DNA of 64,000 nt from Paraspadella gotoi. Taxonomy: Eukaryota; Animalia; Chaetognatha. Below the pieces are notes generated by a model. The model was not told the DNA's origin. It saw only the letters and a program-made list of their open reading frames with translations, and did no database searches. The stretch covers positions 11,977,553 to 12,041,552 of the forward strand of contig CM119267.1 of the NCBI GenBank assembly GCA_051294375.1, written 5' to 3'. Position numbers and translations under genes: made by a program. This document shows, in pieces, positions 126-63,701 of the stretch; the first letter of the stretch is position 1, and each line of letters begins with the position of its first letter.

Positions 126-3100
126 ATGCATATTAAAGAGTTGCGTTTGAAAAACTTTCGATCATATGCCGAATGTCACATTCAGTTTTCACCCCACGTT
201 AATGGTATTTACGGCCTCAACGGTTCCGGGAAAAGCAACATTCTAAAGGCTATTGAATATGTGCTGTCTCACACCTATCTCCGCCCCCACAATTGCGAGT
301 ACCTTTATCGTGATGTGAGTTTCGTTCCGAGGAACTCTGGCAGTGTCCGACCGACTGGAACCGAGATCGTCGTCGTCGTCGACAACCACGATCGTAGAAT
401 CCCTGCTGATCAAGACGAGATCATCTTTAAACGGGAAATTCGTCTCAAGACCGATCAGTTTTACTTCAATGGCAAAAAGATTAACAAAAAAGAGATGGAA
501 GAGTTTTTAGAGACCTCGGGATTGAGCTGTATGAATCCTTACTACTTCGTTCATCAGGGCATGATTACTCAAATATCGGAGGCTTCGCCGATTGCTCGTC
601 ATCGGACATTGAAAGATATCGCCGGATTCTCTTATTATGAAGAGAAGCGGAAAAGCATGATGGTGGATCTCAATAACTGCGACAAAAAAATGCAAAATAT
701 TGATTTGCTGTTCGCAGAATACAAAAGGGAAATAGATAAAATGGGAGCCACAAACAAAGATTTTCTACAATTCAAAAAGCTGGAACGTGAAATTACCGTT
801 TGTCGCTATGGCATTGAAACTGTTAAGGCCCGTGCTTTTCAAAAGACGCTGGCGGCAGAAGAGGCCGAAATGTCTTCCCAGTTGCGTCCCGAAGTCGCAC
901 GAAGGGAAAACGAATTGCGTGAAATTGAGGCCCAGTTAGTGATATTGAACAAAAACGTGAATGATAAGTCGGTGGAATCAAGGAGATTGGAAACGCTTCT
1001 CTCGACCAAAAAGGATGAGAGAGACGAATTGGTTGCTCGATATTCCAAAAACGAGTGCCTTAAAATATCTTTAGAGAGCGAGTTAACCGATCTCAAGACC
1101 AACACCTTAGATGAATCGATGGCGCCTCGTCTAGAGGAAGAAATGAGAATTGCTGAAAGCGACAGAGATAAAGTCGCTATAGAGTTCAATGTAATGAAGG
1201 AGGAAGAGGTGAAGACAAAGAAAGAGTTGAATGGACTGAAAGCCCAGCAAGAGAGGATGATTAATCGGCAGGCGGCCGCCAAGGCTTTTAAAGGTGACAG
1301 GAAAAAAAGGGATAAGTTTCTTCGAGAGAAAATAAGAGATATAGACGCTATCAAGCGTACCTGCGAAGATAATATCGTCGAACACGAACAGATTATTGAA
1401 GAACAGGAAAAAAATTTGAGGAACAAAAGCGCACATTTACAAGATATTATAAAAGAAAAATCGATTCATAAAGAAAAATACGAAAAATTAAAAAAGTTGT
1501 TTGAAGATTGCAAAACACGATTGGTTAATGCGAAATCAAAAATTTTAGAGGCAACAAAGGAGACTTCTATGAAGGAAACCGAATACGATATAATTCAAAC
1601 AAATACGGTAAAATTCGAAAATAATCTTAAAATGCCATTCGCCGTAAAGATAGGTTTCAACAGTATAACTGTAATTATCGATTCTTTGAAGGAAGAAGCG
1701 GTTTCAGGTAGTCCGGATAAAGAAGCAGATGCGCAAACATTGCTGGATAATTATTATGGTTTACTCATCGATCATATTGTGCCTGTGAACGATTCATTCA
1801 TTGTTGCCGTGGAAGTGATTGCCGGAAACAAGTTGTGGCATTATGTGGTTGACAATTCGCTGGTGGCCACGGAGTTCTTAAAGCGTCAAAAGTCGATGAA
1901 ATTGCCTGGAGAAATAAATTTTATTTCAGTCAAAGAAGTCGCCGAATTCATTGAAAAAACACCCCCGATCAACCAAGAATGGATCCAGGGAAAATTACCG
2001 CAGCACTCGAACGCGATACAACCCGCTTTAAAATTAATCGAATCCAATACTATGGGGGTTCAAGCCGTTCTCGATTTCGTTTATGGTCAAAACCTTGTTT
2101 GTAAGAAAAACTCCGATGGCAACGAATTGAAAATTGCATGCGACGTTCGAGCTCGCGCTCGGAAACAGTGCGTCACTTTAGAAGGAGAGAAGATTGAAAA
2201 GAAAGGGGCCATGACGGGCGGGTTTCGCAATTTTAAGGAGTCAAAGATTCAAACTTGGCGAGAGTACCAAGAGCTGCGACATTTACGACGAAAGGCTGGA
2301 ACCGAGTTAAAAACCTGTAGGGAAGAGTTGGAAACTTTGCAGAACCATTTGTCCGCCGAGTCGCTTAAGTTAGAAAAGATAAAGCACACAATGGAGAGGC
2401 TGCGACTTGATTTGGAGTATTTGATTAGTACTGAGGTCGTGATCTTGCAAGAGATAAGTGCAACAAAAAATTCACTGGGCATTAGGAGAAAAGCCTTAGA
2501 AGAGGCAAAAGAAAACGGGGCTGACCTTAAAGACAAGATCTCCGTTTACGAAGATGAAATGAAGCAGGGAATCGCCTCGCAGTTGACAGACGATGAGGAA
2601 TTAGAGATGATCCGCTTAGTAAACAAGATTCAGCTTATTGAAGGCCCCTTACCTGAAGGTGCCATACCGCAAATGGTCGCCATAAACGAAAATCTCTTAA
2701 AAGTTGAGATGCAATTTAACCAGTTGGAAATATCTCTGACCAACAAACGACGAGATTTTGAAGCAGCCGTTAAAGATCAACAAGAGTTTTCGATTAACCA
2801 CGACCACATACAAAGACTCGAGGCTCGAGTCGCCAGTATTAGCGTAGAATTGAAAAAAGACAGAGAAGCCTTGTCTTTGGTCGAAAAGGAACTCGAGGAA
2901 AATGAAAAAAGGCAGGAATCTTTAAATCGTGAGCACGCGAAGTTGAGGGAAGAAGTTACCAACTTGGACAAGAGAGTTTTTGCCATGAACCAAGCCTTGA
3001 AGGAGGCGATCGACGCCTGCAAATCCTCATGTGTAAAATCGAAAGAAGCTGATAAGGCTTTGACGGAAGCACGGAAAAAAATGTCTCATTACGAGCTGCA

Positions 3101-4049
3101 ATTGAAACCAGCGGAGAAAAAGGTTCCTGAGGATGCTCGTGTTTGGAAGCTTGAAAAGCGCATCGTCGAACTGGCACAAAATCAAAACGAATTGTCCTAC
3201 GACCCAGTTGTCGCTTCGAGATTCAAAGAAGTTATGGAAGATTGGACAAAGTTGGAGAAGCAAAAGACAAAACTGAAAAATAGTCGACTATCTTGCGAGG
3301 ACCTGCTTTCGGTTAGTTTATCATTTTGTTGTTTATAAAATTTTTAAAACTTTTTCTGAATTTCGTTTAAATATCTTCAGCACATGGAGGAAAGGAAAAG
3401 CGCCGCGATACAAGACACGTTTGATCGCGTAGCAGCAGAATTCCAAGAAATCTTTGCAACTCTCGTGCCCGGAGGCAGCGGAAAATTCATCCAAATCCCG
3501 GACCCTCGGGTCTTAGTCGCTACCGAAGAAATCGATTCTACCGACTCGTCTTCTACCACGTCGACGCAAAAAAGATGGGGAGAGAATCGCTTCAACCTGG
3601 GCCTCGATATCGAGGCTACCTTTGACCAAGACTCCGTCCCAATGAAGTCTATTCAATCTCTCTCGGGTGGCCAAAAGTCTCTTGTGGCGCTGGCTTTCAT
3701 TTTCGCCATTCAAAGGGTCGACCCTTCACCCTTTTACATTCTCGACGAGGCCGACGCCCACATTGACGACAATTACAAAGTTCTCGTGGCCGACATGATT
3801 GAGCGTCTAAGCCAAGGAGAGGCAGGAAGCCAATTCATCATCACCGCTCACAAAAAGGGTTTGGTAGATAAGGCAGATATGATTTTGCGAGTCAAAATGG
3901 TTAACCACCAATCTAGAGTAGCCAAGTCGTCGTTAAAGGAAGCGCTACGTTACTTTGAAAAGAGGCAGGACAATTCGGCCTTTCCGGAGGTGGAATCTGC
4001 TTCAGTGTCGTCCTCCATGGCGGACGAAGAGGAGTACCGAGTTTCATAA
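126..4049 (+). CDS. SMC3: Structural maintenance of chromosomes 3 (cohesin subunit)-like, divergent; exons 126-3311 and 3381-4049 (~1284 aa)
   Basis: Walker A GLNGSGKSN, NPYYFVHQG Q-loop, coiled coils, hinge ending CVTLEG...GAMTGG, signature LSGGQKSLVALAFIFAIQ, Walker B PFYILDE. A 69-nt GT-AG intron (3312-3380) joins the two ORFs in frame. Confidence 0.88.
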
Positions 4050-8886: not shown

Positions 8887-11800
8887 ATGACGCAGCGCAC
8901 CACATGGGGTGCGGTTAACAACTCTTTGTCGGATTGTCTCTCCGACGACGGCGGCGATGGCTGTGGCGGCGGACAGGAAGCGCGGCGTTTGTCGCTTATC
9001 GCTGCCAACTCTAAACGGGCGAATATGGAAGAAGTTCCGTTATCGTCATCCCTTCCATCTTCCCCTCCGTCGGCGGCCAATAACGCCTTCGTCGACAGAT
9101 CTCCATTGGCCAATCAGTTGACGGCCATGAGATTAAAACTGGTGCGTTTTAAAAAAGTTTGCTTAATGAAAATTTGCAAATTACTTACTTACTTTTATAT
9201 TTTTATATTTTATGAAAGATTTAGTATTTAATCTATATTATTTAAGCAAATATATAATGCTTTCTTTCTTAAAAAAATTTTTACAATTAAATATTTTTTT
9301 TGTATAGGAGGAAAAAAGAAAATCCATCGAAAAGGATAAGGTAATATTCATCAAACGTCAAAAGTCCGACTTTGAAAAAGCAATGGTAGACTTTGTTCCT
9401 AACATTTTTTTTTTTTTTTTTTGAAAATTAAATAATTGTGGTATTTTTGTAACTTATTGCTTTTCTTTCTTTGACAGTCACGTCTCGAATCAAAGTGGAC
9501 GAAGGAGCGGCAACGCGTTGGCAAGGCGGCATTTCTCAAAGTGGTCGGTGCCTCGTCCAAACCCGGAGAGAGGGCCTTTCCAAATTCTACCTCTCCTAAT
9601 CAAGATGCCATTGTAGAGGAAAAAGAATCTCCCGTCAAAACGCCGGATATTTCCCTCGTTGCCGGGGAAAAAGATTCCTCTCCGCGCGTGAAGGGAGCGT
9701 TGGAAGAGTTGCCGCCGGCTCCGTCAAAAATTGTGCGAAACAGGACTTACACGGAGGAAGAAATCAAGGGAACGCTTGAGGAACTTCGTCAAAAATGGTT
9801 CGAGGAAGATCGCGTCGAAATGACTCGAAAAACTTCTTCCTCGAGAGGATCGAGCGGTCGTTCTTCTCCGCTTCACGCTATTCAGCGGGACGAACACGCA
9901 GTCGCTGGTGGACGTAACAGTGAAGACAACACAGTCATCCGCGGGGAAGAAGCAGGACGGAATCGGACCGACAGTGTTGGATCTGCCCGTCGAGACGAAG
10001 CTTCTCGGTCCGGGAGCGTCGGAACTTCCTCACCTTCCCCGTCGCCGTCTGGCGAGTATCACCACAATATCGAGCAATTGAACGCCAGTCTCGTGGGACT
10101 CGAGGCCGAGATCCAAAGACTAAAGCTGCAACAGGCGCAGCTCAAAGCTCACCAGCAACAGTTTAACTTCCCACATCAGGCTGTCCACTCTCAAGACGGT
10201 GGAATGTTGGATTATTATGGACATCGTTCCAGCCCTTATGCGCAACAACAAATGGTGCCACCGCACAAATTGCCTCCGCAACATCATCCTCCGCATATGC
10301 CTATGCCTCATCAGAGTCACCTTCAGGGTTCTCATTTCGGTGGTCCCCAGTATTCTCATCATTATCCCGCATACGCTACTGGAGGTTATGTTCCTGGTAT
10401 CGCCACTCCACCTCAACATTACGGTAGCCTAACTTCTGTTTCCGCCGGCAGGGACTCACCTGGGCCACAAGGATACCCCCCACAAGGTCCCAGCGTGCCT
10501 TCAAACCCGTACGGCTCCCAAACGTTGCCAATGCATCCACAAATGTACCCGCTCGCCAACGCACCACCTGATCCTCGATTTCAAGCCCAGCATCTTTACC
10601 AGAATCATCCCGACCATTCTCCCTATATTCCGCATGTGCATCATCAGCAGCAGCAGCAACATATACAAAGTCAGCAGCGAGATCTCAACTCCGAGGATTA
10701 TGGAGATTTTCGGGATTCCAACCAAGAATACCGGCAGCAAAACGACTTAAGGCGGGCTGTTTCTCCCGCCGAACCCCAAATTATGACTGTATCTCACGAC
10801 TCGAATCAAACCAACTTGTACCCATCGATGGCTTCATCCCTCAAATCTGAGGACCTCCAAATAGAACAATATTCACAAGACGGTGCCTCAGATCATGAAG
10901 TCTTTGGTTCCGGTGAGCAGAATCTTCCGGTCGGCGAAGACGCATTTCCCGAGAACGAACCAACCGCGTTTTCCGTTTTACCCGCGTCCCCAAGAGAAGC
11001 CTTTGCTGCGGCATCCCCTCGACCCCACGAAGACGACGCGCTGCCCGATGCCGGACGGTTTTTGACTATAGAAGACGGTGCCGTGGAAACGAACGGCACA
11101 AAGAGTGACCAGTTTTTCGTGGATTTTGGCGACGGGAAGAGTGAAGCGTCGAAAGAAGGATTTCGACTGCCACCGTCTCTGCGTCGTGCGAAAAAGACGA
11201 AAGAAACTGCAGCGATAGAGCCGATGAAGGGCGGCGGAAAGGCTAAGGCGGCGCCGGTCGTCGCTCGCGTTGTGCCCGTTTCGCAGGTCGACCGGGAAGG
11301 CCATCAAGCCGCGCTGAGCCTTGATTCGAGCGACGGCCATCCTGAACCCTCAATTTCGACGGATGTGCAGGAAACGTTCCGAGGGCCGTCGTCGAATTTC
11401 GAATCCGTTTCGATTGCTACTCCACTTCCGACCCCATCGCTTTCTGCGCCTAAGCCCGGAACTTTGATTATCGTCGCTGGCGGCCGAGAAGAGGCAGAGG
11501 AGAGACAATCTCCCGATTCAGCAGTGCCTGTCACAGGTGGATCGCCCATGTTTAGCGTGGATAGCGCCAAACTTTCCGACATGGAAAAAAAAAAACAGGA
11601 GATGATTATGAAGCAATTGAAGCGACGCGAGGCTCAAGAACTGAAGCGCATCAAGCGAGAAGCGGAAGCTGCCGAAAAGCGACAGGAAGAGGCTCGCAAA
11701 ATGGAAGAGGTCGAAGCTAAAAAAGCCGCTGAAAAGGCCAAAAAAGAGGCCATCTTTCAAGAATATCTCAAGCGAAAAAAGGAGAAGGAGTTGGAAGAGG

Positions 11801-12534
11801 CGGGGGGCGCGCCGGCTGCCCCCTCGCGAAAGCCGCCTCCTCGATCGGCGGGTCCGAAGAAGAAAAAGTCGACTGGATCTGGCGCTTTCTCGTCGCCTGT
11901 CAGAGGAGCGTCGCCGGCGAGAAGGGTTCAATTTTATGCGAAATCCGGAGTAGACGATGAGAATGGTGATACGGACATGACCTCCTCTTACCCGCCACCC
12001 ACCGGGGGTTCGCCTACGCACCTCGCGTCCAAGGGCAAGGCGTCTTCGACGCTTTGCCAGCAACCGGGCGACCAGGAAATCCCTAATCAGAACGAGTACA
12101 CCGGTCCGAAGCTTTTCGTGCAACCCAGCGGAAAGACAAATAAGCAAATAATCGTCAACGCTGTGAAAACTGTTTGTCTTGCTGGTTCCGTCAACGCTGA
12201 CTTGAAAAAAAAAGTATTGGACGAACTGGAAAAGTCAGAGGGGAAACACTTTCTCATCTTATTCAGGGACGCTGGTTGTCAGTATCGGGGCGTTTTCGAG
12301 TTTGATCCTGAGTCAGAGAGAGTTGAAAAACTTTGTGGGAATGGTCCCAAAAGTATTTCCAACGAGATGTTGGACAAGGTGTTTAAGTACAGTAGCGGCC
12401 AAAAGAAATTTACCAGCATCTACGCTAAGCAATTTTCCGTCTCTATTGATGCGTTTACCATTAAAGATCACCTATGGCAATCGGCAAAATCGAAAACGGG
12501 TCCGAGACCTAGACCTCTTACAGTCTACAATTAA
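8887..12534 (+). CDS. CAMSAP: CAMSAP/Patronin microtubule minus-end binding protein; exons 8887-9141, 9308-9340, 9478-12534 (~1114 aa)
   Basis: CC1 motif MRLKLEEKRKSIE...RQRVGKAAFLKVV assembled across exons, further coiled coils, C-terminal CKK domain (YTGPKLFVQPSGKTNKQII...HFLILFRDAGCQYRG...KYSSGQKKF). Confidence 0.9.
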
Positions 12535-14997: not shown

Positions 14998-17900
14998 ATG
15001 GCTTCCGTACGAGTCGCGGTGCGCGTGCGACCCCTCAACCAGAGGGAGATCGGCAAAGGGTCTCCGGTCATCATTTGCATGGAAGGCAAGAAGACGAAGA
15101 TCACTAACCGCAAGATCGTCGTCGAAGGAGAGAGCGACATCCGTTCCTCCGAGGGCAGAGAACGCGTTAAGGAGTTTGTCTTTGACTATTCTTACGACAG
15201 CATGGACTCGGCCCAACCCAATTTCGCGAGTCAGCAGCAAGTCTTCTCCGACTTGGGCACAGAGGTCGTTCAGAGGTAGGGGTTAAAGGCGACATAAGGT
15301 TTGGTTGATTGGAATGCCGTATGCGTTCCTCTTCGTTGTCAGCTCTTTCGAGGGATACAACGCCTGCGTTTTCGCCTACGGCCAAACCGGAAGCGGGAAG
15401 TCATATACGATGATGGGAGATGGAGACAATCCAGGTCTTATCCCGCGCATCTGCAAGGGACTTTTTAACAAGATGAACACGGGCTTGAGGGACGGCGCCG
15501 CTTCTTATCGAGTCGAAGTCTCTTATTTGGAGATATACAATGAACGCGTCAGGGATTTGCTCAAAGCGAGCAAGGCGGGCATTAACGCCCACGCCCTGCG
15601 CGTTAGGGAACATCCCAAAAACGGACCCTATGTTCAGGTACAACTTAAAAGGTTTAATGGTTCATGTTTGTTTGGTATTGGTTTTATTTTTTTTTTTTCA
15701 TTTTTAGGATTTATCTAAACACATTGTGATGGATTATGGAGATATCCAGGCGCTGATGGATAAAGGAAACGCTAATAGAACGACGGCTTCTACAAACATG
15801 AATGACACAAGCAGCCGTTCTCACGCTATATTTACCATCAGCTTCACTCAGGTAGTTTTTATTCGCTCGGCGAACAGTTTTTTTTTGACGCAAACCATTG
15901 GCCAATTTTATATGGTATAATGTCCACTTGGCCAGCTTATCTACGTAAATACCTCTGGTTTAAGAACTAAGAAATAAACCAAAAGTTTAATATTTCCTCA
16001 CAGGCTAAACTGGAGGACGGCATGCCGAGCGAAGTAACGTCGAAAGTGAATCTCGTCGATTTGGCGGGATCGGAGCGTGCCAGCAAAACTGGTGCTCAGG
16101 GTGATACTCTGCGAGAGGGAGCCAATATCAATAAATCACTCGTGAGTCGGTGATAATTTTTTTTTTTTCAGCGGGCGCGGTAAATGATCTTAATCGCTTT
16201 ATTTATATTGTTTCTCAGGTTACTCTGGGTAACGTGATCTCCGCCTTGGCCGACGCTTGCGACTCTCGTCGCGCCTCCGCCTCCCCTGGCGCCACCTCGG
16301 CCTCCGCCGCCGCCTCGAAAAAGATGGTTTTCATTCCCTACCGCGACTCTGTCCTCACTTGGCTGCTCAAGGACTCGTTGGGCGGAAACTCAAGGACCAT
16401 CATGGTCGCCACAATTTCGCCCGCCGAGGATAATTACGGCGAAACGCTAAGCACCCTAAGGTTCACAGGGGTTCTAGTCTGGGAGGGGCATATGTCAAAT
16501 GGGTTGTATTAAGTAAACGACTTGAATATCTTTTAACGTCCCCTTCGACTCTGATACCTCAGGGATTTTCACACCCCCTCTCCTAAATGAATTTTTACTC
16601 AAGGACGCGAGAGTAACGAAAAGAATAATCCTATGTAGCATAATGGAAATTCAATTACTTTTACTCCGCCAGATATGCCAACCGCGCCAAGAATATCCTC
16701 AACAAGCCTGTCATCAATGAGGATACGAATGTCAAACTTATTCGAGAACTCAGAGCCGAAATCGTCAGATTAAAGAATTTGCTTGGGAACGTCGACGTCG
16801 TCTTAGATCCGGCTATACAAGAGAGAATCCACGAAAACGAGGCCAAGGCCAAGGTCGGTTCAGTTCCGTCTTGAAGCGTTTTATCCCGAATTATTTTTCT
16901 AAATTTTCTCTCCAGCATATGCATATGAAATTGGTACAAACAATATAAAAATTATCCATTCATTTAATAAATAAGCTATCTTGCCCCTGACTTTGGACAG
17001 GCTTTGGTGTTTTAAGGTGTCCGTCACTCTTACAAGATAATGACATAGCAAGCTTTCAATCAAGACTCTCTCACAATCTCGTTTAGTCACTCCCAGAATA
17101 CCCGGCTTCCCTATCAATGAAGTGGCATAATGTTTCAAAGAATGTTTCAATTTTATGAAAAGACCACTCCCTTAAGTATGTGACTCAATAAGTGTTTTAC
17201 GAATTACACTCATATATGATTAATTCCACTTTTTTGTTAGAGAAAGTCGGCTTATTTTATGGTGGTTTTGTTTTATTCTTGACAAAAATTAAACTAAACA
17301 AAAGAAGTCAAAGAAATTGAAATCTCAAATGAAATGCACGTTAAATTTAAAAAAAAATAACGAAAAAAAAAAATAGCCAGGAAGCGACTTTAGTTATATT
17401 TTATAAAATATAGTATTAGTATCAATTGTATCGAGAAGTTTAAACGTTTTCTTTCGCGTTCCCTCTTTTCACTTTGTTCATCGTTCTTTGAATGTCCTTG
17501 GCTCTTCTCTTCTTTTCACATCCATAGCTGCTCCTCTTCATCCTCCTCCTCCTCCCTCCATATTTTCCTATCGCTCACGTTCTATTTCGCGACGGGGTGA
17601 CCTTGTCGAATTGTTATTCAGGTACTCACGGCGGAATGGACGGAAAAATGGCAAGCGACGCAGAGCCTATTAAGAGAGCGCAAAGACCTGCGCATTCAAC
17701 GCGAGAAGGGAGGCAAGGGCGTGGTCCTGGATTCTGAGTTGCCCCATCTTATCGGCCTAAACGACGATATGCTGTCAACGGGAATCACGTTGTACCACCT
17801 TAAGGAGGGCGCCACCCACATCGGCGCCGCATCTCTCACTCTGGCCGCCGTGTCCAGCCCCGACGAAGAAGGGGCCGGGGATGGCGACGTCGACGAGTCG

Positions 17901-36864: not shown

Positions 36865-36954
36865 ATACTCTGGGCATTTAATGAATGTGATTTGTGAAAA
36901 GTTGTGGATAATTTATTTTATCTTGTTTACTTTGTTAAACTGCCTCTTATACAT

Positions 36955-37931: not shown

Positions 37932-38488
37932 TTATACATGCTACTCGCGACAATAATTGTGTTTGACATCCTTTGCTAATTGGAAAAAAAAATTTTAGGC
38001 AGGGATTCTTCTCGTTAATTTTGTACGATTTGTTTCTTATTTAAAGTTTTTTAAGTTAAGCTTCTCAAGTAACTCTCTCACATTCATTGAAATATCCGTC
38101 TGTGTGCACGGGTTCGAATCAAGAACTTTCTGTTCTTTCACACTGTCCCAGGTAAAGGGAGTGAAAAACCTTTAGACCAACTGGAGCCGAGTTTTCTGAT
38201 ACATATTTTTATTTTAGTTCCGGTAGTTGCTTTTATTTTTAATTGGGTTTTATTTAAAAAATGTTTGTGGTCAAAAGCATTTTGTCAATGAGCGTTAGCC
38301 ATTACCGGTTACGAATCACTTGGTCAAATTAACATGGGTTTCGGAGGCTCGAATAAATATGCTGAATGTGGATGAATGTCCTGTAAATTCGCCGCATTTA
38401 AATGAACATTAAATGAACAATGATCATGATAATTGAAGAATGAAGATTGAAGATTTTTTCTTGCTCTAAAGAGTTTTTCCGTCGTCAG

Positions 38489-43803: not shown

Positions 43804-45484
43804 ATGAGTGTGACACGGTCGTTGACTCTAGATCGAGAGACCGAAGCCTTTTTGGACGAACTAGTGGGCGAAAAGCGGGACAATTTTGGCCTCATTGTTG
43901 GCCAACTTTCCTCGGAGGGCGACTTCGCCGTTTTTTTGGCGCCTACGCTTCCACCCCAGGAAAATAAAGTTAACGTGGAGGAGGATGGCGGGGATGGAAT
44001 CGACGACGCCGAAGTAAACACGCCCACTCCTCCGAATCCAGCACCGGGTATCGTGCTTAAAGACCTGACCAAGGAGTGGGTCATCCATCACTCTCACCAG
44101 CTGTCACGCCTTTTGACCGGGGGACTTGAAATAATCGGCTTCTTCGTCGTCTGCGATCCTGACATCTTCCTGGAATCGACTCCCAAACTAAAGACGTTCT
44201 TTACAGTGTTGGAGAAACAGAGAAAGAAGCGCTTCGTCAACGGTTTCGTTGATGACTTTCGTTCCCATCGCGACGAAGGCTACCTTATCCACGGATGCTC
44301 GCGCACTGGAAAGATTTCCTGCAAATCCATAAGCCTTGATTCGACCGCTCCGTTGAAGGCGATCGACCTTAAGTTCCAGAACTTTCTCCACTCGTGGTCG
44401 AGGATCGATAGCTCGTTCGGTGTAGATTGCGTCATCGACATTCCCGCTGATAAGCTTTCCAAACTTTCGCTGATCTGGCAGATTCAACACGGCTTGACTC
44501 CCATGTTAAAGGAATTGTGGCTCTCGAAAATCTTGCTGACTCCGGCGACGTCGTCGTCCTCTGCAGCGGTAATCGTGCCTCCTCAGCGGTCGCCCTTGAA
44601 TAGAGAAGCTGCGCAAGAACCAAAGACAACCAAAGTGGGACGAAAAGGCGGAAGAAAGGGACAAGGCGACGCTCCCTCGGAGGCGGTCAGCGGACGACTT
44701 TATTCGGCTCACGTCTTTAAGAGGACTCTCGACAACGAAAAAGATGACAAGGTGTTCAGGTCGGATTGCGCCACCCAGATGATAGTCGGTGGAACTGTAT
44801 GTGCTCGCGCGCACATGCATGCAAAAGCGTCTGTTGAGGTAAAACTTCTGGCGTTTTAGCAGATGACATCATTTTTCTCGCCCCATACTTACATTTTTCT
44901 TAACCATCCCCCCTACCCACTTTAAAGGACTCGATAAATGCGCTGAAAAAAGATATGTTGAATTCGGTCCTGACGCGTTGTGAACTTCTCTGCGACGACA
45001 TGTTGACGGAAGAAGATCAGGAAACTCGCCCATCCGGCGCCGTCATCTACGAACTTCCACTTCGAATATACGCCCCCGTCAAGGATGGCCTCACCATCGC
45101 CGACTTCATGTTTAGGGATGAAACTAAACTTGACGCCGTTGAGCGGATTAAGGAAGTCACGGGACATGAAATTCTTGGTTCGCACACCGAATTTAATTTA
45201 CTATTAGTTTTAAACATTTAAGATTGAAATTTCTTTTATTTTCAGAGGAGGCTTTGGAAACAGCGGTGGAATCTTTCGTTTCTCGCGATATCTCGCCCGC
45301 CTCCTCCATCGAGTCACTCTCATCTCAAATCTCAAGTGATGGTCTGCAATCTGTCGACAATTCCGCCGGGTTCCTCCAAACGTCGTCGCAAGCGCTCAAG
45401 CGTCATTATGTTTCGGTTCTCTGCGCCGGTGGTGCTTTGGCGGCACTCTTTACAGCTTACCTTCAGATTGAACACGTTCTCTGA
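43804..45484 (+). CDS. ODR4: ODR-4 homolog (GPCR maturation factor, tail-anchored); exons 43804-44838, 44928-45177, 45246-45484; alternative ATG at 43747
   Basis: GLIVGQ, WVIHHSHQLSRLLTGGLEIIGFF, ALKKDMLNSVLTRCELLCDD, LPLRIY, C-terminal TM. Reading frames join through GT-AG introns. Confidence 0.85.
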
Positions 45485-45947
45485 TAGATACATTAAAATT
45501 AAACTAGTCACTACGCCTTTCCGTGATTTTAAATTTTTAAAACTTATCATAATGATCATGTGTTTAAAGCTTTAGAATTTCTTTTCAGATCTTAAAAAAT
45601 TTACTACGATTTACGATTTACTACAATTGCGACTAAATTATATGTAAGCAATGGAAGTGATGGACTTTTTACTTTTCGTTTATTTCTAAAATTCGTCAAG
45701 ATTATTTCGGTTTAAGTGACATCTGTCTGTCACTTGTGTTCACCGTATTATTCACAAAGACCGATAATATTAACTTTTAACAAGAGGAATGTGTAATGAT
45801 GTGTAATGATAAACACTCATGACTTCAGTGTCCTTATAGTCCAATATAATTTATTGGACTGAATATGATGACCTGATAAATTGCCCAATTGATATCGGAA
45901 GAACCTGTTAAAAAATTCGCAATCAAAATCATCGTGATAGAAGAACC

Positions 45948-47015
45948 ATGGCTAATATTTTTGGCATAGAATTTGCACCTATTAAAGTCCCAATACATCG
46001 GCGCCTTCAGACATTAGTCGTCTTCCAATTTATTTCAATGTTTCTTTTTTATGGCCTTTTGTCTGTCGCTTTTCTCTATTACGTTTTTTTTTACACGAGA
46101 TTTTGGTGGATTGTTGTTTTGTACCTAATTTGGTATGTTATTGATCAACCTAAAGCTCATCGAGGTGGTAGACATAATCTGTTAATACTCGGTGAATATG
46201 TAAGCTTTTTCGCAGTACGAAAGTGGCGCATTTGGCGCCATTTTCGCGATTACTTCCCTATCCAACTAATCAAAACGCATGATTTGAATCCTCATAAAAA
46301 TTACATCTTTGGATATCATCCGCACGGTATGATATCTATAGGCGCTGTTTGTTCCTTTGTCATGGATGCTGCGGGGTTTTCAGAGATATTTCCCGGCCTT
46401 GTGCCACATTTATTAACGTTACGTTGTTGGTTTTATTTTCCAATTGTGCGAGAAATTCTTCTTTTTGGTGGACTGTCGGCTGCAAGTCGGGAGAATATTG
46501 ATAGCCTTTTACACAGTACGGATGAAAAATCGTCATATGGTAAATGTGTCGTTATTGTGATTGGTGGAGCGCAGGAGGCCCTTTATGCCAATCCCGGGTC
46601 GCACACTCTCGTATTGTCCTCTCGGTTCGGATTTGTGAAAAAGGCGATCATTCATGGCGCTGCCTTAGTGCCAGTTTATGGCTTTGGAGAGAATGACCTG
46701 TTTTGGCACAAACAGGCTCCAAGAGGATCTATGTTGTCAAAATTTCAACATTTTTTTCGTAAGATATTTACTTTTTCTACACCTTTGTTTTGGGGTCGAG
46801 GAATTTTCAACTACACCTTTGGGATTTTACCCAGACGAATCCCCTTGAATGTTGTTGTGGGCCCTCCGATTGAACCAAAAAAAAAAAATCCAAATCCTAC
46901 ATCTGAGGAAATTCAACAACTTCATGGCAGATATGTTGAAGCTTTGACAAATCTTTTTGAAAGCAATAAAAAAGTTTATGGAATTACAGACGATGTGCAT
47001 CTGGAAATTTTATGA
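45948..47015 (+). CDS. MOGAT/DGAT2-family acyltransferase, single exon
   Basis: IEFAPIKVPIHRRLQT, FRDYFPI, YIFGYHPHG, IGGAQEAL, GFVKKAIIHGAALVPVYGFGEN, VVGPPI. Confidence 0.92.
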   Translation: MANIFGIEFAPIKVPIHRRLQTLVVFQFISMFLFYGLLSVAFLYYVFFYTRFWWIVVLYLIWYVIDQPKAHRGGRHNLLILGEYVSFFAVRKWRIWRHFRDYFPIQLIKTHDLNPHKNYIFGYHPHGMISIGAVCSFVMDAAGFSEIFPGLVPHLLTLRCWFYFPIVREILLFGGLSAASRENIDSLLHSTDEKSSYGKCVVIVIGGAQEALYANPGSHTLVLSSRFGFVKKAIIHGAALVPVYGFGENDLFWHKQAPRGSMLSKFQHFFRKIFTFSTPLFWGRGIFNYTFGILPRRIPLNVVVGPPIEPKKKNPNPTSEEIQQLHGRYVEALTNLFESNKKVYGITDDVHLEIL

Positions 47016-48619: not shown

Positions 48620-52814
<4,195 letters not shown>

Positions 52815-53343: not shown

Positions 53344-54405
53344 ATGTGGAATAAAGTTTTGGCGGTAATTTTCCTGTCAAAGTTGGTTTCGTGTGACGGA
53401 CAAATCATCTCAACGGACATCACCTGCAAGCATCCGTCCGATTGTTCTTATCCCAAACAATGCTGTTACTTCAAAGAATACAAGAGCAAATTTTCCCTGG
53501 ATGATAACACCTACTTGGCCGGGGAAATAACAGGAAAATGTTGTTATCGTGGCCACTATTTCGGCGGCTACGGTTACTACCGCATGTCGTTTTGGAACAT
53601 GTGGTATTTTTGGTTCATCGTTATCTTCATTCTTCTATCCTGCTTCGGTGGCTGCGGCTATTGGCGTCGACGTCAGTGGTTGCTGTCGTATCAGAATCAT
53701 CAGGCGGTGCCCATGGCGCAGGCACCGGGACACCCACTTTCTCTGGCACCACCCCCACCCCGTCACCATCGACCCTCTCCGCTATCGTCCCAGGCCCATG
53801 ATATAGTCACTGGGCGACGATTATCCAGCCGACTGGGTCGTGGACTTCCCTCCCTTTCTCCGGGTCCCACCGGGTCTCTCCCCCACCCCCAGGGTTTCGT
53901 GGCACCTCCAGGGTTTGATCTCTACACGGCGCACGCGTCTTCTCAGATCCCCGCCATGTTTTCCCCTGCCCGTGCCACCCATCCCTACGTAGCCAACCCA
54001 CCGCCCCACCTTCCCCAGGCGGCCAGCATAGATGGAGCCGCGTTGGATAGTAACTTTTCTTCGAGAGGTCTCCCAGCCCCACCCCCTTACGTCGAAGTGG
54101 TTGGAAGCGCGCCGGTGGACAAAGACGCTCCCGAATACGGTGGGAGCGTGCGGGATGAAAAGATGAAAGACTTGCCACCCTCCTACGCGGAAGCCGTGGC
54201 TCAGATGATGAGCGTGGCGCCCGCGAATGAAGCCAACGATCCTCAACAGCGCCCGACGGGGCCGGTTGCGCCGACGTTGTGCCACGCCCGTGATGGATTT
54301 TCGGTCCGGGGCGAAACCACCACCGCCGGTGTTTACAACCCTATTGCTTCGCCGCCCGATGGCACCAGAGACATCTCTTCCGGTGGAGCTTCAGGGGGAA
54401 TTTGA
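53344..54405 (+). CDS. VOPP1/WBP1 (Shisa-like) single-pass membrane protein with PPxY motifs, single exon
   Basis: Signal peptide, Cys-rich ectodomain (CC...CC), TM WYFWFIVIFILLSCFGGCGY followed by WRRR, Pro-rich tail with PPPY and PPSY. Confidence 0.75.
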   Translation: MWNKVLAVIFLSKLVSCDGQIISTDITCKHPSDCSYPKQCCYFKEYKSKFSLDDNTYLAGEITGKCCYRGHYFGGYGYYRMSFWNMWYFWFIVIFILLSCFGGCGYWRRRQWLLSYQNHQAVPMAQAPGHPLSLAPPPPRHHRPSPLSSQAHDIVTGRRLSSRLGRGLPSLSPGPTGSLPHPQGFVAPPGFDLYTAHASSQIPAMFSPARATHPYVANPPPHLPQAASIDGAALDSNFSSRGLPAPPPYVEVVGSAPVDKDAPEYGGSVRDEKMKDLPPSYAEAVAQMMSVAPANEANDPQQRPTGPVAPTLCHARDGFSVRGETTTAGVYNPIASPPDGTRDISSGGASGGI

Positions 54406-55540
54406 TCATTTTTCAATCAAGATAAAAGAATACAACTTTTTCTCGCTTTTATGTAAGTCAGCTTTGGCTGATTAAGCTTTACTTCTGATCTCATTATTTT
54501 TCTAGAGAAAACTCTAAATAATAATCGGTGTCAAATCTGTGTTTATTTTTGATAGGGAAACGTAACCACCGCGGATTACCGATCGTGTCATTCCTTTAAT
54601 CTTATGTAAAATGCTTTGCCATTTAAAAAAAAATTGCCTACTTCTGATGAAATCTCTTTGTGCACGTAAAATGGATATCATTTCTTGAGTCATGGATTCC
54701 GTTGAGAATTAATTTTCGCATTAGAGCTACTCAACCAAAGTTCTTTTTCTAACTAGTAATAATCGTAGATTAACAATTGTTTGCTTTGTTTGTTAATTTA
54801 TTTAAGCATACATAATTTATTTCATTTGAAATAAAATTTTATAAATTATTACTTTGTTTTATTTATTTTGTCGTTTATTTTCTTTGAATACGTAAAAAAA
54901 TGTCGAAATTTTCATCATTAGAACATTTCAGTTGATGTTTAAACTTTTCTCTTTGTGTCATTAGGGACCGTGCTTTTTACAAAATAAAAAATCGACAAAT
55001 TGAATCACGAACCACTTATAGATAGCATAGGAATTTTTCACTTTTTTGTTAGACTATATGTAACTATTTCGAAAAATTAAAAGGGATGAAATTGAAAATA
55101 AAACAATTTACAGTATTTCCCGCATCGGGTTTTGCTTGCAGAACACAGGCAGAGATATTTATAATTTAAATGTTTGAATGGTTTTAAAAATGGTATAAAT
55201 GGTAATGTAATTATTGAAGGTTTTTTCAGACAAATACTTTTTAAACTCGCTCTGAGTGACTGTTCTCTCTACCATTTCTTAGAGAATTTTAAGTATTATG
55301 TAGTATATACCTAAGCTAAGAAGTCCTTGGTTTTTGACAAGCTGCGATTAGTATATGAATTATGGTTAAATCGTCGCGACGTGAAATAAGTGATATTTTT
55401 GCCGAAGTTTACAATTTACTCATTTAAAAATGCGAGAGCCGTTTAAAAATTGAAAGGAATAGTGGTTGGGTGAGCGCAATATCGATTTTATATTGAGACT
55501 TTGCTTACAGATAGTCACGATGTAGAAACTCGTTACCAAA

Positions 55541-57365
55541 ATGTCATTCAGCCGGAGCCGATGCGCCTCCGCAGCGCTCCTGGTGCTGTTATCAGGCTGG
55601 GTCACACGCCCTTCGACTGCGACGGCCTTATCGACCGACCGATTTTCCGCTGGACGGACCACGGCGGTCGAATCGAAAGAATTCGTTGGGGAAAATCGGC
55701 CTCGCGTTCCGCACCCAGAGTATGTCGGTGAAATTGCCTTTCCCGGTCTCGGGCAAATCGGCGGTTTGGCCACCGACGCCTCTGGCCGACTCGTCGTCTT
55801 TCACCGAGCGGACCGGCGCTGGAACGCCGTCTCTTTCAGATTGGATAATACATTCTCTGGCGAGCCCATCGCCGCTAACACGCTCGCGCTGATCGAGGAC
55901 GGCAGGGTGGTGCAAGAATGGGGTAGCGCCACCTTTTACATGCCTCACGGATTGACGATCGACTCCCACGGCGCCGTTTGGCTCACCGACGTCGGCGCTC
56001 ATCAGGTCTACAAATTCGCAGAGTTGGGAGCCCCAACTCCCAAGTTGACCGTCGGAGCTAAGCTGAGTCCTGGCAACGATAACCGACACTTTTGCAAACC
56101 AACCGACGTCGCCGTCGAGGAGAGCGGACATTTCTTCGTCGCCGACGGGTACTGCAATTCTCGAGTTGTAAAGTTCGACCCAGCGGGAAAGTTTGTCACG
56201 CAATGGGGACATTCCGTGCGCGGTTTGGGACTGCATCCAGGACCTGATGCCTTTTCTATTCCGCACGGGCTTGCGTTAGATGAAAAAAAAGGTCAGTGTG
56301 ATGATTTTTTTGTGTGGGATTTAAATAAGTTTTATCAAAATTTATTTTTGACTAGGAATTCTTTATGTTGCCGATCGAGAAAATGGTCGAATTCAATGCT
56401 TCGACCCCATGGGAAAATTTCTTCGCGTTATCGAGTCGTCGGCCTTCGAACGCCTTTTCGCGGTCGAGTTTTCTCCGGCCGACGACGTGCTGTACGCCGT
56501 CAATGGTTAGTTAACCTTCTCAGCTTCGCTCATACCTAGCTCATTTAATAGTTACCTTGAAGAGATCCAATGATTTTTATGATTTACTGATTGAACCATT
56601 TTAAATTAGCAGTACTTTAATTGCCGAAGTGAACGGTTGGTGGATTTTCAATCACCACAACGACATGTTAATTGAAAGCAAAATCGTTATGATATTGTGG
56701 AACTTTTATAATCACTGATCTCTTATTCTGTAAATCCCAGTTCTTGGCTGCTCTCCCTTCGTTTAGGTCCTGGTATATTCGTCAAAAGCGTGAAAGGCTT
56801 CACCATTTCCGGGGAAAACTTCACAATTCTGAATCCTTGGAACCGGGCGGGAGAAGATTTCGACCAGCCCCACGACGTCACAGTCAGCCCGGACGGCCGC
56901 TACGTCTACGTTGGGGAAATCGGTCCCAACCGTTTGACTCGCTTCGCGGTTTCGCAAATCGACGAGGAGATGAATCGTTCGCTCAACGCCAGTTCCGACG
57001 CATACTCGTCCTACCCCGTGTTGACACTTTTCGGAACTGTCTTCGTCGCGGCTGGTGTCATCTTCGTCCTCGGCGGCGTAGCCCTCGTCTGCCTTTACCG
57101 ATACCGCGGCGTCGGTCTCAACAAAATGGCCAAGTTCCATTTCGCAAAGTTGTGTAACGACCCGGCGAGCGGCGGACGCGACCGTTTCGGTGGCGGATAT
57201 GTGCCGCCCATGAGCGACAGCCTCAATTTGGGAACGCTCCTCAACCGGCGCCAGGGCTTCGACCGGCTGAGTACCGAGGACGGCGAATTGGACAGTCTGA
57301 GTCAAGGCCTAAGTGACGCCGAAGAGTATGAGGCCACGGGAGGGACCACCGAGTTGAATGCTTGA
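55541..57365 (+). CDS. Monofunctional peptidyl-alpha-hydroxyglycine alpha-amidating lyase (PAL), membrane-anchored; exons 55541-56291, 56356-56505, 56767-57365
   Basis: Signal peptide, VVFHRADRRW, FYMPHGLTID, HFCKPTDVAV, FVADGYCNSRVVKF, LYVADRENGRIQCF, PHDVTVS...YVGEIGP, TM segment, tail GFDRLSTE. Confidence 0.9.
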
Positions 57366-57878: not shown

Positions 57879-60800
57879 ATGGGGTTGGAGGAACTCCAGC
57901 AATGGTGGGAGATTCCCGCCGTGGCGCACTTTTGTTCTCTCTTCACCTCGGCCTTCAACTTGACCGACTTCGATATCGAGGAATTGGAGGGTGCGCTGAT
58001 TGCCGAGGAGGAGGTCGGAGCCTCCGCCTTTACTGCCGAAATCATGGTTGGGCTTCTCAGGGGTGCCTACGGACGCAAGGATATCGCCCCCGCCAACTTC
58101 ATGAAGTATTTGCGAGACATTCTCTATTACCGCTGGGAGACTGAACAAGGAAAGCCCAACCCGCTCCCGCCCTGGCCTATGGGGGAAAAGCCTCTGCTTG
58201 ATGAAGGTCAGTTGCTTGAACACTTGAATAAGATAGTTCTACATGACCTTTTTATCTCGCCAAACGGGCTTAAGCCCGTCTTGGCATGATTTTGGTTTAC
58301 TTCTGCTTCTTTGTTACCGTAGTCGTCGTCGTTATTGTTATCACGCTTCTTTATGTCGCTCTTTTTTTTCTGTCGCTGCTTCTTCTGATTCGTCTAAAAA
58401 CGAGTTAAGCTCTGCAGCGGCTGTCCAGCGGCTTTTCAGCTTCTCTTTATCTTTTTTTTTCTTTTCTTTTTTTTTCATTCTCTCTTTTTCTTTCTCTCTC
58501 TCTCTCACGCATACACGCATGTTTGTTTTATTTGTTGGATATAAACTCGTAATCCGTCGATCTTATTTGCTTTAATACAGATTGCATTAATGTTAATTAA
58601 TCATCATTGGGGTTTATATGGTTTAATATTTATTTCACGTAGTTCATATTACCCCACTCATCATATTTATGATGAATAACGTCAATGAATGACTGTCATC
58701 GCATCAATGAATGATTATCATCGCTTCAATAAATGATTATCATCGTATCAATCATTTGGTTATCGCATTAATATTTGCTTATCATCGCATCAATATTTGG
58801 TTATCCTCGCATCAATCCTTTGGTTATCATCGCATCAATCCTTTGGTTATCATCGCATCAATCCTTTGGTTATCATCGCATCAATCTTTGGTTATAATAA
58901 TATCAATATTTGGTTACCATTATATCAATGTTTGGTTATCATTGTATTAATCAATCAATTATTATTATATCAATCTATCAATTACTATTATATCAATCAA
59001 TTATTATTCCATCAATCAATCAATGACCTTTTACATCACTCAATCAATGACTATTACATCAATCAATCAATTATTATTACATCAATCAATTATATCAATC
59101 AATCAATTACTATTACATCAATAAATCAATTAAATCAATCAATTACTATTACATCAATCAATCAATTACTATTATATCAATCAATTATGATTACATCAAT
59201 AATTCGTTATCGCATTAATCATTCGTTTTTTTTAATTTTTTTTCATTAATTTTCTTTGATAGTAACGTCTGGCGAGATCACTATACTTTTAAGATTTTTT
59301 TTTTTATTAAAACACAATTATTTTTATAATAACGCTCCAGGCTGGAAAACCTTAAATCTTCGGACCAAAGTCGAGATTTTGAAAGAACTTTGCGACTATC
59401 GTCTGGACGCGATCGATGTGCCGGAACTATTGCGCGGTTTTCCCGGCAACCAACTTCGCGTCGATCCTCTAGGTTATGATGACCACGGAATGTCCTATTG
59501 GTATTTTTACGGTACGAGACTCTATAAAGCTGCTCCCACTGCCACCTCTGTCAAACGAAATTGCCGTGACGAAGAAAATAATGAGGAAGGTGAAGATGAA
59601 GACGATGACGCCGACGACGAGGACGAAGAGGACGACTCTACCGAAGACGAATCCTCCAAAGACGAACCAGCCAACGTTTTAAAAATCCTACCGACGAAAA
59701 GGCCGCAAGTTCGTCGAGCCGATCTCGTAGAGGACGATCCCGACCTCGGACGTGAATTGGAGTGGCTGAACGAGGTTATCGAGGAGGAGGAATTCGGGGG
59801 CGGGCTTGGGGACGACGACGACGAAGAGGAGGAAGAAGAAGAGGATGATGAGGACGGAGGAGAATGGACACCGACGGGATGCAAGGGCAAGGGTCGGCGA
59901 AGACGAAAAGAGGAGAAAGAAGAAGCGGAGGAGGCGGCAAACTCCAGCCACACCGAATCCACGATAACCAACCCCGCTCCCGCTCCTGTCACTAAGTCAA
60001 AACCAAAAGCTCGACGCCGTCTGATCGAGGAGGAGCTAGCAGAAAGATACAAAGAGGAGCGCGAGTTTCAGCTGGACATTCAGCGCTTTAGCCGTGCGGA
60101 GAGAGCCTCGCGTCGCGCCACGCAACCCGTCGTTGCTCCCCATCGGAAAAAGCGTCGCCGGAGGCGCAAAGACGAGGAGACTGGAGAAAACATTCAATCC
60201 ACTGACGACGAGAGATCGCAGCCAAAAGATTGCGTTGATGGTGGAAAAGAAGGCAAGAAAGTCAAGAGAAAAGGGAGGAAACGAAGAAACGCCACGGGAT
60301 TCGATCTCATTAGAAGACCCAAAAAGAAGAGCCAACCCGTTTATCCGGTCAGCATCCGAAAAGCGATCACGCCGCCCGACGATGAAGACGCCGATAGCCA
60401 AGGCGCCGACAGCCAACCGGGTGCCGTTTTCCAAAATGGGCTGCCGCCGAAAAAACGGGAGGCAAGGGAGAAAGACGCCGACGACGAGGAAGAAGAGGAA
60501 GACGACGACAAGGTTCCGGGCTCTGAAGGCAACGCCTCTGCGTGGAGCAGCGACGAGGAAAATCTTCCTTCGCCGAGCAAAAAATTTAAGAAGGAAAAGT
60601 CCTCCTCCCGATCTTCTTTGATGTCCGCTGCTTCTGTAGAAAACAATGGCGACGACCAAGCGGACAACATCGGAGAAGAGGAATCGAAAAACGAAGGTCC
60701 TTCCGGTGTTTTCCCGGTGTTTTGCGTTCCCTCAGAGGAGGCCCCAGAAAACGTGAAGGTCGAAGCATTGGCAGAGGTTGCGGAAAAAAAGGAAGAGACG

Positions 60801-63701
60801 AAGGATGCCAAAATAGGTGAGAAAACATCTTGTGAAACGGAGCTGAAATTGGAGGTGAAGCCTCAAGTTAAGTTAGAATTAAAGTCGAAAGAGGAAGGAA
60901 CGGAGCTGAATTCAGATTTTAAGGGTATGCAGGCGACCGATGAATGCGATTCTCCAAACAAAGATCGAGATACCATGAGAGATAAAACGAAATCGGATCC
61001 ATCAGCTTCAGAAACGGAGGAGGACGTTTTGGATAGCCAGAGGTCAACAGAGAAAGAAATGAAAGAGAAAGATGTTGAGGCAAGAGAGAAGAAAAAAGAT
61101 AAAGTCACAAATGCCGAGGAGGATGAATATTTGAAAACCGACTCGCGATTCGAGACAAAAAACTTAGGCGACGGTTGCAAACAGGCTGACTATCTGGGAT
61201 CGCCGATGGAGATTTGGCGCGACTGGCAAATCGTTGCGTCCGACCTAGACCAGTGGACGTCGCTCGTCGAATCGTTGGAGCAGAGCAAGACCAAAAAGGG
61301 ACGAAACTTGTGCAAAATTCTCAAGGGCGTGTTTGTGGCCGAAATCGAAAAAATGTTAAAAGAGCGTGATGACAACATGGAAAAGAAGAAGCTGAGTCTC
61401 GGGCATGCCGGTGCCGGATTGAAGAAACCGGAACTCGTGTTGGCCGCGGTCATCACCGAAGAAGAAAAGATTCAGCAGGAACAGGAACGCAAGCGATTAG
61501 AAGCGGCGCGTCTCGAGAAACTCGAGGTCGAGCTACGGCTGAAGGAAGAAGAGGCGCAGAGATTAGAAGCCAAGACGAAGGCGAAGGAGAAGAGAGAAAA
61601 GCGAAAGCAACTTCGTGAGATGAAGCTTCGGGGCGAGGCCATCCCCTCGGATTTGCTCGCCGACGACGAGGACTCTTGCAGCCAGCCGGTCGCGGGCGGC
61701 GACTTTGCCTGCGCAGCGTCGGACGCCCTTCGAGAAGCGAAGCAATTAGAGGATCTCGACGAGGACGCCTACCTGAGCATGTACAAAGTCGTCGCCGCAG
61801 TGAAGAAACACGAAGATTCCTGGCCGTTCTGGGAACCCGTGACCGACGATGTGGCACCGGGTTATTCCGAGGTCATCGAAAACCCGATGGACATTTCTAG
61901 GATAGAGGATAAGCTGGAAAATAGAGCCTACAATTCGCGATCTCAGTTTGTAGAGGACTTTCACATTATGGTGGACAATTGCGAAGAGTACAATGGGGAC
62001 GACAACGAATACACGGTCATGGCGCGGACAATTATGCGTCACTTTCACCGAATGTTGAACAAGTTCTTGCCCGACGAAAACCTTGATTCGGACGACGACG
62101 AATACATGACGTGGAAGGATCGACAAAAACAAAAGAAACGTGGCCCTAAAAAGCAGAAGAAAGTCACGTCAAAGCTGGATCGTTCTTACGATCCGTTCGA
62201 TAGCAGCGACTCTGACACATCGCTCCACCCTCATAACTCTTCTCGATCACTCGGACGAATTTCTACAAGGACCGTGACGAACGCTTTGCCGGCGAAACCG
62301 AACCCTTCGAACCGCCCCAACGGAGCATCTTGGGATCCCTGTAGTTTGAATTGGCCCGGGATGATCACCAACCGAGAGGCACCGTTGCCTCGTCCCGCTG
62401 AAATAATGACCGCTTCCATCGAAGAGGAGGCCGATCTGAACAGCTCTCAGATGTCAACCGATTCGGCTTACTCGGAGCCGGACAGGCGAGGGAACGACAG
62501 CAACGTCGCCACGCTTTTGACGACGTCTCGGTCGTTGGAAATTTCCATCAAGGGCCCAACCGTCACGTCAAGCCTTGGCACTACCCAAGTCCGAGCCGGG
62601 CCCAGTCCCATCTCGAAACCCGTTAAACCGTCGAAACCTCCTAACTACGGATGCTTGGAACCGGATCCGCCGATTCTAAAAACCTCCATCCCGCCGCCCG
62701 TGTCGTCCGAAATAACAGTCGTCAATCATTATCCCACGGCGCCCATGCAGCCTTTCCAGCGTTTTCCAACTTCATATCATTCACAGCAGGCACGTCTGCC
62801 GATGACTCATCCGTCGACCTATAACAGTAATCCAGCTTCGTCGTACGGACCCGTCTCAGTTGCCGCACCTCCGAACATTACCTTTCCTAATTCCAACGTC
62901 CATAATCGTTTGTATCAGTGGCGCAATCCCACTCATTTGCCACCCATGAATCATCATCAAATGCCAGTCTCAGATTCCTTCCATCGCACGATAAGTCAGC
63001 CCAACGGGGTGGCTGTGGGGCCAGTCGTTCACGACTCTCAACATCATCAACCGCAGCCTCAGCAGTTTCCATCAAATCGAGTGCCAGTGATGTCGAATTC
63101 TCTAGCATATCGTTCTGTAGTACCTATTCAGCCACCGACTCAGCCATTTCCCTCTGGTGACGCCCTAGCCATGCAGCATCGTTCCCAAATGTTAGGTGGA
63201 ACTTCCTATTATCCGGGTATGACCTACTCTCAACAAAGATTCTGTTATTCCTCCTCGTCGTTGAGTCAATCCCCACAGAACGCGGGGCCCGGTGGTTATT
63301 CCCATCCTGTTGCCCAAGATTCTCCACCGACGCCGAATCTGTTTATGAGGCCGGTGACTTCTGAAGTGCTCCAGCCTAGTCAGTCGACCCTCCGATATCC
63401 CGGAATGATACCGCCTGAGCGTCAGGGATTTTCTCCATATGTTCATCGAAATCCAGTGCCCAACCACCCTCAGATAATGGCTCCTCAGAGCAATTGTCAT
63501 AATAGAATTTCTTCTCAAACAATGCACAGTACGCTTGAATATGGGTCTACCCTTCCTAATTCATACAAACTGTATGGACAGGACGTAATCTCAGCTTCCA
63601 ATTACCCGTCCTGTCAAAATTTTCAAGGTGGGAACGACAATAACGGTCACATAAAAGAAGATGAAAGAACTCCCTCGCCGAAAGTTTATCTCAGTTTGTG
63701 A
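57879..63701 (+). CDS. CECR2: CECR2/dikar-like bromodomain chromatin-remodelling subunit; exons 57879-58207 and 59341-63701
   Basis: DDT-like ELQQWWEIPAVAHFCSLF...DFDIEELE, WHIM-like LKELCDYRLDA and LRVDPLGYD...YWYFYGTRLY, bromodomain KHEDSWPFWEPV...APGYSEVIENPMD...NCEEYNG. Confidence 0.88.
58249..59300 (+). mobile_element. HINE/Helentron-like element with an internal ~23-bp minisatellite, in the CECR2 intron
   Basis: Subterminal inverted ATCTCGCCA (58254) and TGGCGAGAT (59270), 5' hairpin GCCAAACGGGCTTAAGCCCGTCTTGGC, T-run flanks, ATCATCGCATCAATCCTTTGGTT repeats within 58700-59220. Confidence 0.6.

Follow-up and report, generated by a model that had tools for sequence, protein, structure and literature searches.

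Why should fourteen unrelated genes of an animal genome all be read in the same direction? The question is raised by the 64,000-nucleotide stretch analyzed here (hereafter the window; contig CM119267.1, positions 11,977,553 to 12,041,552), in which open reading frames (ORFs) and a Pfam search delineate 14 protein-coding genes, all on the plus strand and head to tail between positions 126 and 63701 (Table 1). Thirteen of them match Pfam above the cut-off, each in a different family, the exception being a VOPP1-like ORF. Where a gene name is more specific than its Pfam family, it is one we presume: KIF16B from the order of its domains, and likewise CACNG, VOPP1/WBP1, PAL and CECR2. The original prediction had recognized this one-stranded run of unrelated genes and proposed that it is a long polycistronic array. 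The feature is real and was accurately reported, and RNA support for it is partial, in that it concerns the co-transcription of pairs. The reading that we favor, tentatively, is that the array is a string of several short units resembling operons, with internal promoters and probably with trans-splicing to separate their messages, rather than one 14-gene transcript.

The purity of the strand bias withstands closer inspection. On the minus strand we considered all 64 stop-to-stop ORFs of at least 50 amino acids (aa) in 22 non-coding stretches, together with 18 chosen long antisense ORFs; none of these 82 reached the Pfam cut-off and the single match below it had an E-value of 0.0066, which bears out the statement that the window holds no convincing minus-strand gene. 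Sixty-one further ORFs in non-coding sequence of the plus strand gave none at the cut-off and one match below it, revealing no missed gene in a screen that may overlook exons shorter than 50 aa and genes that belong to no Pfam family. Rfam recognized no family in the window, spliced-leader RNA genes included, and no tRNA was found. None of the 13 junctions is divergent. Measured from stop codon to ATG, with untranslated regions (UTRs) included, the gaps amount, in order, to 4837, 2463, 702, 265, 170, 1624, 700, 1311, 463, 1604, 529, 1135 and 513 nucleotides (nt), and the seven short ones quoted in the original prediction are exact. Homologs move the ODR4 start from 43747 to 43804, making the CACNG-ODR4 gap 1368 nt. 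Seven of the 13 gaps are no longer than 702 nt, and three no longer than 500 nt.

Transcription across some of these gaps is suggested by the contigs of a public sequencing run, X1, which has 85% of the sampled words; its RNA nature is a guess on our part, no record describing it as RNA. X1 contigs were placed on positions 38250-58249, that is, on 20 of the 64 kb, which include seven junctions, six of them assessed (PAL-CECR2 was left out). The details available cover eight of 576 pieces, 15 of 19 joints and six of 112 loose ends, all six from repeats, and contigs of this kind reveal neither where a transcript starts or ends nor its strand, and do not prove a single molecule. They skip eleven introns (GT-AG or GC-AG), and in 20 of 23 bins their depth is matched within 0.1 by spliced pieces alone, without intron cover, so that the cover of unique sequence represents spliced RNA, not DNA. 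At two of the six assessed junctions a single contig carries both ORFs: one, of 3,547 nt, joins ODR4 to MOGAT and ends 30 letters inside a repeat, and the other extends from the VOPP1-like ORF across the whole gap and takes in most of PAL. Another contig extends from CACNG toward ODR4, stopping within 57 nt of the start of the latter. Altogether 4,283 of the 5,799 gap bases at the six junctions are covered (some piece ends being inferred from depth), and contigs run beyond AATAAA or ATTAAA signals after six of six stops examined. Positions 41018-41304, 43748-43767 and 53146-53328 have no contig cover, which we do not use as evidence. Taken at face value, these data point to co-transcription of some neighbors in the array.

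The ODR4-MOGAT pair is probably joined in a second species as well. JGI/Logan proteins are far closer to those of the window than are the proteins of any named animal (IARS 83%, MOGAT 70% and ODR4 45-73% identical), and in this relative a full-length ODR4 (P0493) and a MOGAT (P0241) share the size of their longest contig, 3,849 nt each. The frame of P0493, a protein found on two contigs, is open across both introns of the window ODR4, and a near-identical MOGAT, P0121, lies on a contig of 3,844 nt. The two coding sequences add up to 2,661 nt, leaving 1,188 of the 3,849 nt for gap and UTRs. Judging from the equal lengths only, ODR4 and MOGAT likely reside on one and the same contig in the relative, and their co-transcription would then be conserved between the two species. 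The 3,849-nt contig has no room for a third array gene, which bounds the unit to two genes there; the relative's IARS contig (4,312 nt) is, by its length, IARS alone. Conserved neighbors were also sought in metagenome contigs, where none of 80 IARS loci belonged to a close relative and one had a weak SLC35-type match (E 5e-7), the CAMSAP query of this check being out of frame.

One could envision units of two, three or four genes, with promoters of their own in some cases, in which the polymerase, having transcribed one gene, would carry on across a short AT-rich spacer and read the following gene as well, as the two-ORF contigs suggest. The upstream message would be cut and then polyadenylated, and the downstream message would most probably be capped by spliced-leader trans-splicing at an AG shortly 5' of its start codon, candidate sites being 29099, 36164, 41110, 43758, 45839, 48548, 53313 and 55510. 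The two gaps crossed by contigs contain 12 and 20 ATGs, so translation of the downstream ORF by scanning requires a fresh, capped 5' end; either trans-splicing or an internal promoter could provide it. If operons of this kind were abundant they would lift the share of neighbors lying on the same strand, and a run of 14 would then be unsurprising.

How surprising the run is depends on that share. With random orientation, 14 genes are co-oriented with a probability of 0.5^13 = 1.2e-4, and the figure of 1 in 8000 given with the initial claim is thus arithmetically right, but it shrinks in weight once many windows are scanned: a run of this kind turns up at least once with probability 0.115 in 1,000 and 0.705 in 10,000 windows of fourteen genes. 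Were 60-70% of neighbors on the same strand, the probability per window would lie between 1.3e-3 and 9.7e-3. Figures on orientation exist for two animals with operons. In Ciona, whose operons are small, 173 of 310 neighbors upstream of trans-spliced genes have the same orientation (PMC1488885), and Oikopleura has 2,379-3,124 operons with 6,653-9,543 of about 17,000 genes (PMC11067885), from which we calculate some 62-69% same-strand neighbors. Because a higher share makes the run more probable, the run speaks for a genome rich in operons, by a factor in the tens, although chance could still have produced it.

Several observations weigh against operon-like units. The contigs stem from a single run and from less than a third of the window, and a two-gene contig does not prove one transcript. 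Six of the 13 gaps exceed 1.1 kb, and most exceed the operon cut-offs of 250 bp used for chaetognaths and 60 bp used for Oikopleura, the present gaps including UTRs. The array holds two likely neuronal genes, CACNG and PAL, of a kind depleted from chaetognath operons. No leader sequence was seen among the six of 112 loose ends listed, in contigs that cannot show 5' ends, and four gene contigs (records 2, 3, 4 and 5) align along their whole 5' side. With an acceptor model built on the 37 window introns and applied to the top-scoring site no farther than 170 nt from each ATG, acceptor-like sites score 5.3 bits versus 3.7 in shuffles (p 0.018) and 3.2 on the reverse strand, but the control, sites after stops, also reaches 5.3 bits. 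A switch from T-rich to A-rich sequence at YAG occurs in four of 14 genes (1.9 expected, p 0.115), and the Ur motif of nematodes (as given in PMC7668243), sought at candidate acceptors, in six of 13 cases versus 4.94 expected, which is no enrichment. As a whole, then, the leader-associated motif tests are weak or null. At NUP50, the contig connects the AG that immediately precedes the ATG to 247 further letters, which reach exactly 30 letters into a foldback element; from these lengths, the 5' exon is likely an ordinary cis-spliced one and not a short leader, and RNA likely continues upstream of it. Co-orientation, tight gaps and two-ORF contigs thus fit the co-transcription of some neighbors, but a single long array resolved by a leader goes beyond what these data show; of the RNA signs that the original prediction had proposed to look for, bridging of neighbors occurs on assembled contigs at two of six junctions, and a common leader is absent from the loose ends listed.

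Some apparent signals were set aside. Four of four contig starts are preceded by an acceptor-like AG no more than 16 nt away (nominal p 2e-4), which was not weighed since contigs cannot show starts; the 16-nt limit was set post hoc, and one of the four sites falls inside the CACNG coding sequence, hence by chance. The CYFIP contig, which begins at 48549, directly after a YAG, was likewise not counted. A candidate shared promoter motif, GTTCACC, occurs in five upstream regions, yet its seven copies in the window compare with 5.1 expected, and it was rejected. Behind position 41017 the NUP50 contig has a further 30 letters without a counterpart in 38250-58249; poly(A), an insertion and a leader from the other strand cannot be told apart here.

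The alternative that survives best, doubtful as we hold it to be, gives each gene its own promoter: the run would be the tail of a mild co-orientation bias, picked from many windows, and contigs would cross the gaps by way of long 3' UTRs or read-through in a compact genome. The scanning figures above accommodate such a run even at 50%, the weak or null outcomes of the leader-type tests favor it, and so do the likely cis-spliced exon at NUP50 and strong donors upstream of CAMSAP (9.0 bits) and KIF16B (7.8 bits). A compact annelid genome lacks operons and leaders (PMC7854359), so that compaction alone does not imply either. Under this view, however, as little as 170 and 265 nt would have to suffice for the 3' UTR of one gene plus the promoter and 5' UTR of the next; a TATA box is missing from all three gaps that are no longer than 500 nt, and no promoter motif is shared. 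The absence of divergent junctions and the likely recurrence of the ODR4-MOGAT join in a second species also speak against it.

Less probable still is a genome-wide organization into directional clusters of the trypanosome type, with few promoters, tens of genes behind each, and every message trans-spliced. The run is open at both ends of the window and is longer than the operons of chaetognaths (up to nine genes) and Ciona (up to seven) in the excerpts available; most gap bases at the six junctions lie under contigs, the NUP50 contig, extending upstream, likely enters the foldback element, and that of MOGAT goes on into a repeat. The evidence is nonetheless that of one window, with gaps of up to 4.8 kb, tissue-specific genes, and no leader among the loose ends listed. 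The relative's contigs appear to end with two genes or with IARS alone, and the likely cis-spliced exon of NUP50 hints against genes that have no promoter and are all trans-spliced. In the literature on leaders, operons, strand runs and small phyla, with few subscription papers covered, we found no description of long directional clusters in any animal. It is tempting to speculate, as an improbable extension, that an invertebrate lineage other than the arthropods, lophotrochozoans and deuterostomes sampled keeps its genome in long one-directional clusters, beyond operons of seven to nine genes, in which intron-rich and even neuronal genes would be transcribed through and cut apart by an undescribed leader. 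Very unlikely, finally, are uncut mature dicistronic messages translated by leaky scanning or re-initiation without trans-splicing, as in green algae, since the unbroken crossing of two gaps, the similar contigs of the relative (3,844 and 3,849 nt) and the lack of a leader among the listed loose ends have to be set against ATG-rich spacers of 463 and 1,135 nt, which are not short, and large upstream ORFs of 507 and 353 aa, whereas the algal mechanism, as excerpted, favors leaky scanning past small upstream ORFs (PMC7896298). Short trans-spliced operons are thus favored over separate promoters, these over long directional clusters, and the latter over uncut dicistronic messages.

Table 1. Genes and other features of the window; positions are counted from its first letter.
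Feature	Positions	Strand	Remarks
SMC3-like cohesin subunit	126..4049	+	SMC_N and hinge; one intron; 1284-aa open frame
CAMSAP/Patronin	8887..12534	+	CAMSAP_CKK, E 5e-48
KIF16B-type kinesin (presumed)	14998..22336	+	Motor, FHA and PX domains
Cytoplasmic isoleucyl-tRNA synthetase (IARS1)	23039..28927	+	Pfam and protein comparison
SLC35E1-type transporter	29193..36091	+	TPT match on both exons; single intron of 5.8 kb
NDUFAF2-type complex I assembly factor	36262..36864	+	NDUFA12 family; starts 170 nt past SLC35E1 stop
Foldback (inverted-repeat) element between NDUFAF2 and NUP50	36955..37931		Self-BLAST; 977 nt, arms 78% alike
NUP50 5' exon, non-coding, inferred	37902..38151	+	247 contig letters fit 37902-38148; donor of 8.8 bits at 38152
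NUP50	38489..40553	+	PF08911; two introns skipped by contig
CACNG/stargazin-like, claudin family (presumed)	41254..42435	+	Claudin_2; intronless
ODR4	43804..45484	+	PF14778; start set by homologs; introns skipped by contig; 507 aa
ODR4-MOGAT gap	45485..45947	+	463 nt, 12 ATGs; crossed by one contig holding both ORFs
MOGAT/DGAT2 acyltransferase	45948..47015	+	DAGAT; intronless
CYFIP	48620..52814	+	FragX_IP; five introns, one GC-AG; joints from contigs
VOPP1/WBP1-like membrane protein (presumed)	53344..54405	+	353-aa ORF with contig cover; no Pfam match
VOPP1-PAL gap	54406..55540	+	1,135 nt, 20 ATGs, four AATAAA/ATTAAA; crossed by one contig
Stand-alone PAL, peptide amidation lyase (presumed)	55541..57365	+	NHL repeats; introns skipped by contig
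CECR2-like bromodomain protein (presumed)	57879..63701	+	Bromodomain; KIAA2026_hel below cut-off

The genes themselves have mostly short introns (37 with GT-AG or GC-AG borders, median 93 nt, two further candidates having been dropped because their coordinates lack GT..AG). The SLC35E1 intron (29805-35575) is repeat-rich and five times as long as the next, and includes a GC-richer patch at about 34050-34600 without a Pfam match. SMC3 is very divergent, its best PDB match, itself an SMC3, reaching only 156 bits across about 950 aa; such divergence is unusual for a normally conserved protein, and the gene may be a paralog that evolves fast, such as a meiotic one. In CAMSAP the N-terminal CH domain was not found and an in-frame stop lies just 5' of the ATG, so that either the domain was lost or its exons lie farther 5', outside the window; SMC3 would then sit within a CAMSAP intron. 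The MOGAT gene has a GC content at third codon positions of 0.33, compared with 0.48-0.71 in eight other window genes, and its relatives in ENA contigs are broken at one position into pieces of 86 aa and 264-281 aa, suggesting intron loss in the window species. The GC-AG intron of CYFIP (48954-49028) is skipped by a contig. In a quick CYFIP tree of 50 rows, among whose named rows priapulids, kinorhynchs, nematodes, tardigrades, flatworms, gastrotrichs, chaetognaths and tunicates do not figure, the window sequence forms a long branch outside the arthropods (support 25 for this placement) and stays separate from the two deuterostomes; in the IARS tree it is joined only to a JGI protein.

Several of the longer gaps had been described as largely transposon fill. 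Repeats and the foldback element do sit in them, but their ORFs have no Pfam match. The foldback element starts 91 nt beyond the NDUFAF2 stop, and the NUP50 contig likely reaches into it. Decayed ORFs at 6800-7250, also without a Pfam match, are flanked by GC-rich, inverted-looking repeats at about 4830-5030 and 6520-6730, and resemble what we take to be the GIY-YIG end of a Penelope-like retroelement. A repeat family whose contig depth exceeds 20,000 in X1 has copies at 47700-48000, in the MOGAT-CYFIP gap, and at 58700-59300, in a CECR2 intron.

Operons and spliced leaders are patchy over the animals and their origin is debated (PMC12460157). We liken the array to animal operons and do not assign it to them, because the defining leader was not seen. 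In animal operons resolved by a leader, about 0-500 nt separate a poly(A) site from the next trans-splice site, a distance that is shorter than the stop-to-ATG gaps given here. SL2-type operons of nematodes (C. elegans, Trichinella) consist, as here, of unrelated head-to-tail genes, and about 80% of C. elegans intercistronic regions measure 500 bp or less (PMC7668243), a range that the window gaps of 170, 265 and 463 nt fit, UTRs included. The window differs in having no enriched Ur motif, no leader in the listed loose ends, and 14 genes with several gaps above 1 kb; its proteins have no nematode affinity among the named top matches. Tunicate operons (Ciona, PMC1488885, PMC7986045; Oikopleura, PMC11067885) also comprise co-oriented, loosely related genes, and their dicistronic RNA is detectable. 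Three of 13 window gaps fall within the 500-bp definition used for Oikopleura; Ciona operons, spacer-free and with 2.08 genes on average, are unlike the window, whose CYFIP stands apart from the two deuterostomes in a tree with no tunicate sampled. Those of the chaetognath Paraspadella gotoi (PMC12460157) come from an invertebrate, hold housekeeping genes and number up to nine genes; only one of 13 window gaps qualifies under their limit of less than 250 bp, and they are poor in nervous-system genes, whereas the run here includes CACNG and PAL. The bicistronic mRNAs of green algae (PMC7896298) resemble the present contigs in having two ORFs per assembled RNA, probable conservation between species and no leader seen, but the window spacers are much longer and ATG-rich, and the upstream ORFs are large.

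If the animal is a chaetognath, a flatworm or a nematode, short operons are already known for its group; a further lineage with operons and leaders would, if the reading is true, be an independent case. Kinetoplastid directional gene clusters are long same-strand runs, with tens to hundreds of genes from one strand switch to another, that extend genome-wide, without gene promoters, and in which every mRNA is trans-spliced. The likeness lies in the long same-strand run of unrelated genes, and the difference in the many cis introns of the window genes (37 in the splice-site model), in a comparison drawn from one window. A strand bias that proved genome-wide would make this animal a parallel to the genome organization of trypanosomes.

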